Source: an uncultured delta proteobacterium (GTDB taxonomy: Bacteria; Desulfobacterota; WTBG01; CAIYCZ01; CAIRTM01). Taken from it: a DNA stretch of 64,000 bases. The notes beneath the pieces were generated by a model that saw only the letters and a list, made by a program, of their open reading frames with translations, had not been told where the DNA came from and made no database searches. The stretch covers positions 1-64,000 of the forward strand of contig CAWDSQ010000030.1 in assembly GCA_963804955.1 (NCBI GenBank), in the 5' to 3' direction. The number at the start of each line of letters is the position of its first letter. The stretch's first letter is position 1. Positions 15,350 to 19,145 of this stretch are shown piece after piece. A program made the position numbers and the translations under genes.

Positions 15350-16649
15350 CTAAAAAAACGTACCGAACAGCATGCCGGTAAACGTCGCCATGACAACTAC
15401 CAGTGAGCAATACACGACGGTTTTTTTCGTACCCATGATACTGACCAACACGAGCATGCTGGGAAGTGAAAGCGCCGGGCCGGCAAGAAGCAGGGCAAGT
15501 GCCGGGCCTTTGCCCATGCCGCTGCCAAGCAGGCCCTGCACGATCGGCACTTCGGTAAGTGTTGCAAAATACATAAAAGCGCCGACAACGGAGGCAAAAA
15601 AGTTCGCCCCCAGGGAATTGCCGCCCACGAGATTTGTTACCCATGCGTTGGGAATCAGCCCTTCATTGCCCGGACGCCCCAGCAGAAGGCCGGATACGAG
15701 CACGCCGCCCAGCAGCAGCGGAGTGATCTGCTTGGCAAAGCCCCAGCTTGCGCTGAACCATTCACCCGAGTTCCCCCTGATCACGGCTTGTGATTATGGA
15801 AAGCCCGATAACCCCAGCGCCGAAGGCGATAAGCGGCTCATGGGGAAACAGGAAGGCAAGCACGGCTGTCGGCACGGCGTCCCAGAGCAGCTTCGCCCAT
15901 GCCATGCCAAACCAGAGCACAAGAATGACGGCAAAAGCAAGCTGCTGAAAGACCGGTCAGATACCATTTGATGGAGTAGATTGCAGAGAAGAATCCTTCA
16001 TTGGAATCGGGTTTGCCCCAGTTTGCAAAAACAAGAATTGCAACCATGAGGGCGAAATAAAGTGTGTTTGCCAGAGCGGTCGTTTCACCTCCGGCTCGGG
16101 CATGGCCATTTGACCGCTAGCCTTGGCGATTTCCTCCTTGCGAAATATCAAATGCATGAGCAGCCCGATAATAACGCTGAAAACAACAGCGCCTGCGGCG
16201 CGGGCAACACCGATATCAAGCCCCAGAATGCGCGCGGAAAGAATCATGGCAAGCACATTGATTGCCGGGCCGGAATACAGAAATGCGCTTGCAGGCCCCA
16301 GGCCTGCGCCCATTTTATAAATTCCACCGAAAAGCGGCAGGACCGTGCAGGAACAGACGGCAAGCACGGAGCCCGATACTGACGCCACGCCGTAGGCAAG
16401 CACCCTGTTTGCCCGTGCACCGAGGTATTTCATGACTGATGCCTGGCTGACAAACACGGAAATGGCGCCTGCTATGAAAAAGGCCGGAATAAGGCACAGC
16501 AGCACATGCTCGCGGGCATACCACTTGACCAGCTGGAACGATTCCGTTACCGCATTATCAAACCGCGGCACGCCAACCGGCAGATAAAAGCAGGCAAGAA
16601 AGGCCGCGATGATGACGGCAAGAGGCTTCCATTCAGTTTTCCAGTCCAT
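15350..16649 (-). CDS. ArsP-family permease (several frameshifts)
   Basis: REHVLLCLIPAFFIAG, LAVCSCTVLPLF, FLYSGPAIN, MYFATLTEVP and LLAGPALSLP motifs. Confidence 0.9.
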
Positions 16650-16691
16650 GGTTCGATTTCTCAAAAAAATTCATTTATAAACACAAACTCC

Positions 16692-17015
16692 AGATCTCTC
16701 CCTCCGGTCGAGATGACTGAAAGGGTCGGTTGAAGATGACAGCACTGTTGAGAGTAATAAAAAACAATGTCATTTCGACCGAAGAGAGAAATCTCAAAAA
16801 TTCAAACGTATAGCGAGTCCGTTGTTGCGCCAAGCTCGGCAATCCTTAAAAACCAGATCTCTCCCTTCGGTCGAGATGACAAAAGGGTCGGTCGAGATGA
16901 CGAATGGACCGGTCGAGATGACAGCCCTGCTCAGAGTAATAAAAAATAGTGTCATTTCGACCGAAGGGAGAAATCTCCTTCCTAAGATGTCATTTCGAAG
17001 CGAAGCGAGAAATCT
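16692..17015. repeat. Left array of REPIN-like hairpin units
   Basis: Arms TGTCATTTCGACCGAAG(A/G)GAGAAATCT at 16768 and 16950, variant at 16988. Complementary arms AGATCTCTCCCT(T/C)CGGTCGAGATGAC at 16692 and 16855. Period 182 bp. Confidence 0.92.
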
Positions 17016-17031
17016 TTTTCGGGGGAAAAAT

Positions 17032-17322
17032 TTAAAATTTTAAACTTAAATCCTCCCACTTCGGATTATTCTCAATAACCAGTCGATTCTTTTTTTCTCG
17101 CCGCCATTTCTTTATCTCTTTTTCTCTGGAAATTGCAGCAACCGGGTCTTCAGTTGTTTCAAAGTAAACAAGCTTGTTAACATTATATTTCGAGGTGAAG
17201 CCTTTAATCATCTTAGTTTTATGCTCCAGTATTCGCCGTTGCAGATCATTTGTCATGCCGATGTACATGACCTTGTTGTTCGAATTTGTCAGAATGTAGA
17301 CGAAAAACAGTTTATCGTTCAA
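17032..17322 (-). CDS. Stand-alone GIY-YIG nuclease (UPF0213-like, 96 aa)
   Basis: FVYIL...YIGMTNDLQRRILEH...FTSKY...LVYFE...AISREKEIK...NP; expected catalytic Y/R/H/E/N residues present; TTG start. Confidence 0.92.
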   Translation of the reverse strand: MNDKLFFVYILTNSNNKVMYIGMTNDLQRRILEHKTKMIKGFTSKYNVNKLVYFETTEDPVAAISREKEIKKWRREKKNRLVIENNPKWEDLSLKF

Positions 17323-17363
17323 AGACTTGTCCTTGAAATCATTTCAAAACTAGTTGCACTTCG

Positions 17364-17887
17364 AGATCTCTCCCTCTGGTCGAGATGACGAATGGACCGG
17401 TCGAGATGACAGCCCTGCTCAGAGTAATAAAAAATAGTGTCATTTCGACCGAAGGGAGAAATCTCAAAAATTCAAACGTATAGCGAGTCCGTTGTTGCGC
17501 CAAGCTCGGCAATCCTTAAAAACCAGATCTCTCCCTTCGGTCGAGATGACAAAAGGGTCGGTCGAGATGACGAATGGACCGGTCGAGATGACAGCCCTGC
17601 TCAGAGTAATAAAAAATAGTGTCATTTCGACCGAAGGGAGAAATCTCAAAAATTCAAACGTATAGCGAGTCCGTTGTTGCGCCAAGCTCGGCAATCCTTA
17701 AAAACCAGATCTCTCCCTTCGGTCGAGATGACAAAAGGGTCGGTCGAGATGACAAAAGGGTCGGTCGAGATGACGAATGGATCGGTCGAGATGACAGCCC
17801 TGCTCAGAGTAATAAAAAATAGTGTCATTTCGACCGAAGGAAGAAATCTCCGTCCTAAAACCCATTTCGGACCGCAAGGACAAATCT
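17364..17887. repeat. Right array of REPIN-like hairpin units
   Basis: Left arms at 17438, 17620 and 17823; right arms at 17364, 17525 and 17707. Units of 182 and 203 bp with an identical internal spacer and 21-bp subrepeats ending CGGTCGAGATGAC. Confidence 0.92.
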
Positions 17888-17916
17888 TAAATTATAAGCT
17901 GTAAAAGCAAGCCCTT

Positions 17917-18326
17917 TCAATCTTTGAAATTTCCCACAAACTCCCGGATCTCATCCCGCACTTTTCTAAATGATTCAAGAACTTCCTGATCGCTTCCCGT
18001 AACTGCCGCAGGGTCGTCAAAACCATGATGCGTTTTTACACCTTTTCCGAAAAACACCGGGCAGTTCTGTGCCGCGCTGCCGCAGAGGGTAATGATATAA
18101 TCAAATTCTTCTTATGGGCAGGTCGTCAATATGCTTTGATGTCTGGCCTGATGGCATCAATGCCGATTTCACGCAGCACCTCTATGGTTTTCGGGTGCAC
18201 GCCCTTTGGCTCAGTGCCCGCGGAAAAAACTTCAAATTCATCACCGCGCAAGTGCCGCATGAGCCCTTCGGCAAGCTGGCTGCGGGCAGAATTGCCGGTG
18301 CAAAGAAAGAGTATTTTTTTTTTCAT
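17917..18326 (-). CDS. arsC: Arsenate reductase, thioredoxin/LMW-PTP type (frameshifts)
   Basis: ILFLCTGNSARSQLAEG, ITLC...NCP and FDDPA motifs. Confidence 0.88.
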
Positions 18327-19145
18327 GGCATATTTCCCTTCCGGCTTTTCGCCATAGACAGTGATGGATAGGATTTGAGCGCCGGAATTTTTAAATTCAT
18401 CAAGCTCCTGCTGCGATAAATACTGCAAAAGAATGGAATCGGGTATGGCATACACCTTTTCTTTTTTTATTGAAATATTGGCAAATCCCGCTTCGGCAAC
18501 AATACCCAGATACGCGTCCTTAGTTAAGCGCGCCGGCCACACAGCCTGCATACATTTCAGCGGCAGATTGTATTTTTGGGGCAGCTTTCCGTTAACGACT
18601 ATATCTGAAATACCGAATCGTGCCGCCGGGCTTCAGTACGCGGTAAATTTCCTGAAATGCTTTGAGTTTATCAGGCACAAGGTTTATGACGCAGTTGCTC
18701 ACAACGACATCAGCAGTGTTGTCATCAACCGGCATGTGCTCTATATCCCCAAGCCTGAATTCGACATTTTCACAGCCAAGCTTTCGGCATTTTTCTGTGC
18801 CCGCTCAATCATGGCCTGCGTCATGTCGATGCCGATGACCTTGCCTTTTTCGCCGACAATTCTTCTGGCAATAAAGACATCATTCCCCGCGCCTGATCCA
18901 AGATCAATAACAGTTTCTCCCGGCTTTAGATCCACTGCCTCTGTCGGTATGCCGCAGCCCAGGCCCAGGTCGGCCTCCTTGACATAGCCGTCTTTCTTTG
19001 AATAGTCCGGGCTGAAGGTTGTGTAGATTTCCGCATCCGCACTGCCCGGGCAGCAGCAGGAACAGGAAGCAGCCGCGGGCGATTTCTTTGCAATCTCTGC
19101 GTATTTTTCTTTAACGATGTCTTTGATTTTGTCTTTGTCGTCCAT
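18327..19145 (-). CDS. arsM: Arsenite S-adenosylmethionine methyltransferase (frameshifts)
   Basis: Cys-rich N-terminus, [28 protein letters not shown]-terminal ITVYGEKP. Confidence 0.88.

Follow-up and report, generated by a model that had tools for sequence, protein, structure and literature searches.

A GIY-YIG gene between two blocks of tagged hairpins

The window analysed here is a stretch of 64,000 nt from an uncultured delta proteobacterium (contig CAWDSQ010000030.1, positions 1 to 64,000). Inside an arsenic-resistance operon, between arsC and an arsP-like permease gene, it carries an open reading frame (ORF) for a GIY-YIG nuclease of 96 aa (17032-17322, minus strand), which begins with TTG and is open throughout without an internal stop. 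The gene lies between two blocks of repeats built from short hairpins that are preceded by a (C/T)GTCAT tag. Judged from its own sequence and those of its relatives, the protein is very probably a stand-alone endonuclease of the Ssn family, and the locus a member of the Ssn/SRM system (SRM, Ssn-related motif). The pairing of such genes with such hairpins was published in 2025 (Chenal et al., Nat Commun 2025, PMC11893778), and the locus is a new example of this known system. The original prediction, made from the letters of the window alone, had stated that no characterised mechanism was known for the pairing, a statement that is superseded by that paper. The features of the gene and its flanks are as follows.

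17032..17322, minus strand: ssn-like gene coding for a single-domain GIY-YIG nuclease of 96 aa, an open ORF with its stop codon at 17032-17034 and a PF01541 match (E 2e-17)
17364..17390, minus strand: hairpin module nearest the gene on its upstream side, 41 nt ahead of the start codon, with the CGTCAT tag leading on the coding strand
16988..17015, plus strand: hairpin module nearest the gene on its downstream side, 16 nt past the stop codon, with the TGTCAT tag leading on the opposite strand (repeat family D3)
16692..16976: downstream array, whole
16692-16718 (minus), 16768-16794 (plus), 16855-16881 (minus), 16950-16976 (plus): arms of the downstream array
16795-16854, 16882-16923, 16924-16949: 60-bp spacer, half-module subrepeats and linker, respectively, of the downstream array
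17391..17887: upstream array, whole
17438-17464 (plus), 17525-17551 (minus), 17620-17646 (plus), 17707-17733 (minus), 17823-17849 (plus): arms of the upstream array
17412-17437, 17594-17619, 17797-17822: linkers of the upstream array
17465-17524, 17647-17706: spacers of the upstream array
17391-17411, 17552-17593, 17734-17796: half-modules of the upstream array, the first single and the other two in runs
17858-17887: degenerate arm of the upstream array

The position and orientation of the module at 17364-17390 are the same as in homologous loci, and the module at 16988-17015 stands in the canonical inverted orientation. An intact-looking 96-aa GIY-YIG gene between two repeat blocks had been described, and the open ORF and its Pfam match agree with this. 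The 182-bp unit, 60-bp spacer, 21-nt subrepeats and constant linker that had been described for the blocks were all recovered by repeat comparison. Segments 16721-16977, 17391-17647 and 17573-17829 are 100, 95 and 78% alike without gaps, the last two being spaced by 182. When up to 3 mismatches are allowed, the arm TGTCATTTCGACCGAAGGGAGAAATCT and its inverted partner have 8 copies in the window and none in 100 shuffled sequences, and looser matching gave 10 arm copies between 16692 and 17849. The spacer is present in three identical copies and the 26-bp linker in four, all of them at this locus when the genome was searched, while the 21-nt subrepeats make up repeat family D2. It had also been claimed that one and the same degenerate extra arm terminates the two blocks. 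The two sequences concerned, 16988-17015 and 17858-17887, do occupy equivalent positions in the two blocks, but they agree by eye at only about 17 of 28 positions (some 60%) and just the second is degenerate, the first being a good tagged module with a GC-GAA-GC core. As had been stated, no HUH or DDE gene is present in the locus.

PF01541 covers residues 6-78 of the protein (73 of 96 residues), and no other Pfam family scored above threshold apart from a marginal overlapping match to T5orf172. Among NCBIfam models none reached its cut-off, a weak match to a group I intron endonuclease family staying far below it (27.2 bits versus 56), and a sequence search of the PDB at E up to 0.01 returned no relative. 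In an end-to-end alignment of 11 homologues (the window protein and 10 others), Y9, Y20, G22, R30, H34, E67 and N86 were invariant; by analogy with GIY-YIG enzymes in general, they would be residues of the catalytic or metal-binding type. The gene is single-copy, a protein search of the genome matching only the window protein itself. A domain search detected two further GIY-YIG genes in the genome, coding for UvrC and for a stand-alone protein of 101 aa (L180:1414-1719, contig 7; Pfam E 2.4e-16), and a scan of their flanks found no tagged module beside either of them. The 101-aa paralogue is, by its motifs, presumably of the YhbQ/UPF0213 type. This hairpin-free protein is only 25% identical to the window protein (E 4e-6), which is closer to its hairpin-flanked homologues; an identity of the latter protein as UPF0213/YhbQ type is therefore unlikely, and the label 'UPF0213-like' that it had been given is a loose one.

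Structure and genomic spread of the hairpin

The arm has the layout TGTC-AT(C/T)TC-GA-CC-GAA-GG-GA-GA(G/A)AT-CT. Its tag is unpaired, and a 5-bp stem then leads through a symmetric GA/GA internal loop and a 2-bp inner stem to a GAA triloop. With up to 3 mismatches, 53 copies of this specific arm were found in the 4.26-Mb genome versus none for a backwards control. When only the skeleton GTCAT-N3-GA-N2-N3-N2-GA-N3-ATC was searched for, pairing not being required, there were 78 matches in the genome and none in the reversed genome. These comprise 26 distinct sequences, in which the five stem positions are paired in 23, 23, 25, 24 and 26 cases, respectively. Several pair types occur at four of the five positions, the fifth (inner2) being C-G in 25 of the 26, and the outer stem varies as CTC/GAG, TTC/GAA, TCT/AGA, CCT/AGG and TGC/GCA. 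The loop is G-N-A in 21 of the distinct sequences, and 23 dispersed copies share one identical 25-nt form.

If the scan also permitted longer inner hairpins, the number of modules in the genome rose to 114. Outside the locus they are mostly arranged as head-to-head pairs of about 95 nt with the tags pointing outward, and they fall into several subfamilies that differ in spacers and inner hairpins. The commonest pairs (subfamily A, e.g., C7:264510-264700 and C8:75740-75930) are nested inside a longer palindromic element with outer inverted repeats (GAGACTGTGTCGCAATTAA...) and C-rich/G-rich ends, so that the dispersed elements are mosaics.

Association of gene and hairpin in homologues

Among 41 related genomes, the window's own (G000) included, 23 had a match to the protein at E up to 0.001, and many of these lay no more than a few hundred nt from the end of a contig. 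For 11 homologues (41-96% identity) the flanks were read by eye, and at least one (C/T)GTCAT-tagged hairpin was seen beside the gene in all 11. Typically, a coding-strand hairpin precedes the start by 15-40 nt and an inverted one follows closely on the stop, and the stem sequence varies by lineage. A strict regular expression for the tandem-GA form matched only 4 of 30 loci of relatives (L031, L032, L034 and L055).

A wider sample, with one genome per species, gave 596 confirmed relatives among the first 600 candidates, and the best 80 of these, from many phyla, were scanned. With a loose scanner, a GTCAT-tagged hairpin was found at most 200 nt from the gene in 76 of the 80 loci compared to 13 of 80 in a reversed-sequence control, and the canonical pair (same strand upstream, opposite strand downstream) was present in 51. 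The loose scanner gave 237 matches in 31.5 kb near the gene versus 232 in 199 kb farther out. With a strict scanner, which required a perfect 7-bp stem, 35 loci had a near hairpin and 18 the canonical pair, whereas the control gave none in 80; 75 of its 113 matches fell in the near windows, at a median distance of 39 nt upstream and 34 nt downstream. An enrichment of tagged palindromes beside homologues, which the original prediction had singled out as a check together with a common phylogeny of protein and repeat, is present, and hairpin class also follows the protein tree.

For the phylogeny, hairpins were assigned to five classes by the 5 nt after GTCAT, and a tree was built from 89 proteins and 92 columns, three loci with internal stops having been dropped; 78 rows carry a class label. 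Hairpin class needs 13 changes on this tree, while 500 shuffles, in which near-copies were taken as separate rows, need at least 31 (mean 38). Host phylum needs 33 changes over 71 rows, with a shuffle minimum of 43. Hairpin class is therefore tied much more tightly to the protein than host phylum is. The window protein groups with its orthologue in the same-genus genome G001 and with proteins of an Anaerolineales metagenome-assembled genome (MAG; 71% identical) and a Methylotenera MAG (62%), all with one hairpin class. The Anaerolineales protein is the closest homologue outside the genus, and just downstream of its gene (L061) an arm is identical to arm A of the window over all 27 nt. An identical arm beside a 71% identical protein in a different phylum suggests joint horizontal transfer of gene and hairpin between phyla, and the coupling of clade and class across phyla is what cognate specificity and joint transfer would predict.

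Probable membership in the Ssn/SRM system

In the 2025 paper (PMC11893778), SsnA of Neisseria meningitidis is described as a 94-aa single-domain GIY-YIG protein (cd10448) that binds the NTS hairpin CGTCATTCCCGCGMAVGCGGGAATCYRG as single-stranded DNA (ssDNA) only, on one strand only, and cuts upstream of it; activity on double-stranded DNA or RNA and interaction with RNA are reported as absent. Three more Ssn homologues cut at their own flanking hairpins. Homology was defined by E below 1e-10 to N. meningitidis SsnA, and at least one SRM was found near 71% of homologues and on both sides in 42%, the search pattern HGTCWYN(0-2)YYVSBRHN(0-5)WNVSBRGN(0-2)RNCYNB having been derived from 29 genomes. 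The role reported for Neisseria is a modulation of natural transformation. The paper likens the NTS-ssnA-NTS layout to an insertion sequence, with mobility as a hypothesis only. Our literature search gave no later work on Ssn beyond this paper among the matches listed.

The window locus shares the size and single domain of these proteins (96 aa compared to about 94-100 aa, with PF01541 only), the GIY and YIG tyrosines and the acidic residue, conserved across the 11 aligned homologues, and the inverted two-sided SRM-ssn-SRM layout, given by the modules at 17364-17390 (minus) and 16988-17015 (plus) with the arrays beyond them. As in the published system, many gene-less copies of the hairpin are present in the genome. 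The exact published NTS motif was found in 56 of 301 genomes of one order versus none for a control, a tally that takes in two genomes flagged as unpublished and used nowhere else. Homologues of the window protein occur in four of five NTS-rich genomes, three of them with E values of 4.4e-27, 2.5e-23 and 1.4e-20 and identities of 44-52%. The best of these (52% identical) has exact NTS motifs 18 nt upstream (plus) and 44 nt downstream (minus). Recognition or nicking of the hairpins by the GIY-YIG protein, as had been predicted, thus gains support from homology to the characterised Ssn family and from the comparative tests.

The locus differs from the published cases in its hairpin, in which a tandem GA/GA loop separates the 5-bp outer stem from a 2-bp inner stem capped by a GNA triloop, whereas the NTS has a continuous ATTCCCGC stem; in the arrangement of its hairpins in 182-bp tandem arrays inside an arsenic-resistance operon; and in that SsnA is characterised biochemically, while the window protein is known here from its sequence. 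Hairpins of further kinds were also seen. The genome of the window, which is 87% complete, contains other classes without a cognate ssn gene (ATTCT/ATCCT-GA types and ATTGC types) and about a dozen NTS-like CGTCA-YMCCGG hairpins (e.g., the C14:73990 region and C26:34850), and G001 has a second ssn homologue (L054), which is flanked by an NTS-like hairpin type.

Several observations weigh against this assignment or against parts of the evidence for it. Kinship with SsnA was traced by proxy, through the homologues in NTS-rich genomes and not to N. meningitidis SsnA or cd10448, and binding and cutting were demonstrated for four relatives (PMC11893778), from which they would be extended to the window protein by analogy. 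The published SRM pattern matches no local arm and nothing in the window; it gave 38 matches genome-wide compared to 24 in a reversed control. Only 13 of the 80 homologous loci match it, all of the NTS-like class, and among the 42 loci of classes YTCGA, YCCGA, NYTGA and TGCGA, in which GA follows the outer stem, it matches none. Since the pattern is a search aid drawn from 29 genomes and no definition, the mismatch marks a different hairpin class and not an exclusion from the family. The background of the loose scanner is high genome-wide (4148 matches versus 2333 in reversed sequence), and hence the near/far contrast and the control, not the raw counts, carry the argument. The hairpin classes were defined after inspection of the data, and 51 of the 86 inner branches of the tree are unresolved on 92 columns. 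In the comparison of the gene between G000 and G001 there are 5 nt differences, 4 of them nonsynonymous, too few to show purifying selection. Nearest-neighbour folding of single arms as ssDNA gave -2.6 to -3.2 kcal/mol, no improvement on shuffles (z -0.2 to -0.5). For a 114-nt head-to-head pair the predicted fold is a long hairpin between the arms (-23.4 kcal/mol, z -5.4), in competition with the folds of the individual arms. GNA loops and tandem GA are classic features of stable DNA mini-hairpins and are under-credited by nearest-neighbour models; with thermodynamic support weak, the case for the small hairpin rests on covariation together with this known stability.

Runs of half-hairpins

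The 21-nt subrepeats are copies of the tag and the 5' half-stem that, read along the strand with the tag in front, follow one another immediately 5' of a full module. Such runs, taken as at least 3 tags with a period of 17-22 nt, were found in 7 of 112 other loci (L063, L067, L074, L082, L085, L192 and L032) compared to none in the reversed control, and every run ends in a full hairpin. The loci include ones from Clostridia, an actinobacterium, an alphaproteobacterium and a cyanobacterium as well as that of the NTS-flanked homologue mentioned above, and they involve several hairpin classes. The word 'tandem' does not appear in the main text of PMC11893778, the supplements of which were not searched. 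The same paper describes that a 'first half' consisting of the cut site plus one palindrome half can be cut when paired with a separate second half, and on this ground the runs could offer several alternative cut sites; they could also be by-products of cutting and repair. Any model of the origin of the repeats has to explain this recurrent pattern.

Insertion between arsC and arsP

The cassette lies in a co-oriented operon, with the following outer limits and neighbours.

16650..17916: whole insert of 1267 nt, from the arsC stop to the arsP start, delimited on the basis that arsC and arsP are adjacent in relatives
17917..18326, minus strand: arsC of the low-molecular-weight phosphatase type (Pfam LMWPc, N-terminal part), upstream operon neighbour, frame broken near 18120
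15350..16649, minus strand: arsP-like permease gene (Pfam ArsP_1, E 2.5e-41), downstream neighbour, frame broken

The stop codon of arsC is at 17917-17919 and the ATG of arsP at 16647-16649. In the same-genus genome G002, the ArsP of which is 93% identical, and in G006 the distance from the arsC stop to the arsP start is 2 nt instead of 1267, and in G005, G009 and G015 arsC is directly adjacent to arsP. The original prediction that an insert splits arsC from the permease gene was thereby confirmed, and ars operons lacking it, which had been proposed as something to look for, were found. The cassette is present in G001 at this same site and in this orientation, but the extra 182-bp units are missing there. 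The cassette is therefore an insertion into the arsC-arsP junction that is common to the window's genome and one other genome of the genus. In G017, which belongs to another family, a gene-less head-to-head hairpin pair lies at the arsC-arsP junction (L144), about 130 nt before the arsP start; it is of another hairpin class, with an ATTGC stem, and represents an independent hit on the same spot.

A second filled/empty pair was found elsewhere. In the window's genome, a 247-nt segment with a head-to-head hairpin pair (L161:7017-7263, contig 7) splits a Gp49/HigB-like toxin gene, which in G002 (L174:583-909) is intact and followed by its HTH_37 partner gene. From this one pair, the flanks of which are about 88% identical and the insert of which is apparently composite, no ends and no target-site duplication of the dispersed element could be defined.

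Some caution is needed with the assembly, since the frames of arsP, arsC and uvrC are broken. The open frame of arsP has 237 aa compared to about 435 aa in relatives; arsC shows two stops when 17892-18320 is read in one frame, its C-terminal part being in another; and an arsM-like methyltransferase gene (18126-19145) and uvrC (L181, C16:148942-152172) are broken as well. These breaks reflect indel errors of the assembly or gene decay, the former being likely. No public sequencing run contained as much as half of the sequence words sampled, and no RNA run was among those listed. In two public runs, the cassette and both junctions are found on contigs, one contig of 447 nt covering 16950-17389 with 11 differences, but none of the public short-read contigs spans the arrays, all stopping at the arms, and the count of 182-bp units is thus without independent confirmation. 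The tandem arrays, or at least their copy number, might then be an artefact, the real locus being just a hairpin-gene-hairpin cassette, an explanation to which the broken frames, the cassette of G001 without extra units and the unspanned arrays lend some colour. We regard it as improbable. The units have diverged as real copies would (95 and 78% ungapped identity, with differing numbers of 21-nt subrepeats), the cassette and both junctions occur independently in G001 and in the public contigs, and the absence of further units from G001 is uninformative because short-read assemblies collapse tandem repeats.

Comparison with other known systems

Short stem-loops of the repetitive extragenic palindromic (REP) kind with an unpaired terminal CGTC/TGTC tag and A-T pairs opening the stem have been catalogued (Di Nocera, De Gregorio, Rocco 2013, PMC3733652). 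Like the modules described here, they occur mostly as head-to-head dimers, often of unlike partners, and they include Neisseria dRS3 and Rickettsia RPE. Their stems are continuous over 8-9 bp with loops of 4-5 nt, in contrast to the GA-interrupted stem and triloop of the window, and that paper states that a dedicated transposase is lacking and gives no dedicated enzyme for them.

The layout also resembles that of REPINs (inverted REP doublets) and their RAYT transposases, in that a single-copy enzyme gene is flanked by presumed target hairpins, inverted doublets are dispersed in the genome and hairpins are recognised in ssDNA. RAYTs, however, are HUH tyrosine transposases that form a covalent intermediate and act at a GTAG tag, whereas the window has a GIY-YIG hydrolase and another tag. 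Two Y1_Tnp (PF01797) matches exist elsewhere in the genome and none in the locus, and the genome module scan found tagged modules flanking neither gene; an identity as a REPIN/RAYT system is therefore unlikely. Free-standing GIY-YIG homing endonucleases are those of the I-TevI and Seg type. These have a similar small GIY-YIG catalytic domain and genes that behave as insertions, but they differ in acting on long duplex sites, compared to the predicted ssDNA hairpin targets here, and the window protein lacks a DNA-binding extension and an intron or phage context.

Proposed mechanism and alternatives

On the model of the published biochemistry of relatives, the protein would act when DNA becomes single-stranded in replication, transformation or conjugation. 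It would bind the tag-first strand of a cognate module, which comprises the (C/T)GTCAT tag, the 5-bp stem with its tandem GA/GA internal loop, and a short inner stem ending in a GNA loop, and it would hydrolyse that strand on the 5' side of the tag, at a distance of a few nt, duplex DNA and RNA being left alone. The GA/GA loop probably has a role in recognition. As the gene lies between inverted hairpin copies, the predicted cuts fall outside the cassette and on opposite strands. Besides the cassette, the genome holds more than 100 dispersed gene-less modules of the same skeleton, which for the most part form head-to-head pairs. After insertion of the cassette at arsC-arsP, local tandem duplication of the 182-bp unit would have built the arrays.

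The association of gene and hairpins might be fortuitous, a free-standing homing-type GIY-YIG gene having landed in a pre-existing REP-like cluster to which it has no functional link. Although the gene has one locus in the genome and the repeats occur at about 50 other places without it, this is scarcely credible given that the layout recurs in 76 of 80 loci of many phyla versus 13 of 80 in the control, that hairpin class tracks protein clade, that the other GIY-YIG genes of the genome have no hairpins and that relatives cut at their flanking hairpins (PMC11893778). Hardly better placed is the proposal that the arrays encode a structured RNA which either partners the protein, as the original prediction had also suggested, or acts on the ars transcript. 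The insert lies within a co-oriented operon and would be co-transcribed, and the covarying stems could be explained by an RNA hairpin as well. On the other hand, a scan of 16000-18600 at E up to 1 gave no Rfam family above threshold, the best matches (E 0.36-0.99) being to eukaryotic microRNA and long non-coding RNA families; the tag is specific to one strand, and relative to transcription the modules point both ways; and GNA loops and tandem GA, as stated above, have the character of DNA mini-hairpins. PMC11893778 also reports that SsnA does not interact with RNA.

The Ssn/SRM assignment leaves room for different roles. The cassette may be selfish, or a domesticated control on incoming ssDNA such as has been proposed for Neisseria, or both. 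That it is an active selfish element, in which Ssn spreads its own gene and the gene-less hairpin pairs, concerns its role and not its identity, and seems to us possible but on the unlikely side; the spreading of repeats by Ssn is a hypothesis only, in PMC11893778 and in this work. The routes could be cut-and-repair, with homing into hairpin pairs, or excision and insertion of ssDNA with ligation by the host. In line with such an element, the cassette is inserted in G000 and G001 and the junction is empty in G002 and other relatives, a gene-less pair of another class sits at the same junction in G017, a 247-nt hairpin-pair segment lies in the Gp49-like toxin gene that is intact in G002, many dispersed copies are identical (23 of one form), protein clades and hairpin classes move together across phyla (13 changes for class, 33 for host phylum), homologues are often found at contig ends and the layout resembles an insertion sequence, as noted in PMC11893778. 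Against it, this genome has only one copy of the gene, neither a target-site duplication nor exact element ends could be defined, and the insertions prove that DNA moved but not which enzyme moved it. Moreover, the only biological role tested is the modulation of natural transformation in Neisseria (PMC11893778). The chemistry is a further difficulty. GIY-YIG enzymes hydrolyse DNA and are not known to have strand-transfer activity.

Going further, the hairpin-ssn-hairpin cassette could be a self-propagating, ssDNA-based element that moves with its cognate hairpins within genomes and between phyla, with the half-hairpin runs as its footprints. Its mechanism may be GIY-YIG cleavage beside the tag followed by host repair or by homing into gene-less hairpin pairs. 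We consider this proposal speculative and somewhat more doubtful than a selfish role as such.

Significance

As an instance of the Ssn/SRM system the locus is ordinary; what makes it valuable is its contribution to a field that is still young. The hairpin class with tandem GA and a GNA triloop is missed by the published search pattern, and about half of the 80-locus sample has this class or a related one that contains GA. The arsC-arsP junction and the Gp49-like toxin gene each provide a filled site and its empty counterpart. To those who use Ssn enzymes as tools for ssDNA, the clade of the window protein offers a candidate new specificity. Were the self-propagating element real, Ssn would be the long-missing enzyme behind the superfamily of CGTC/TGTC-tagged REPs, and mobility would in this case need no HUH, DDE or serine/tyrosine recombinase.

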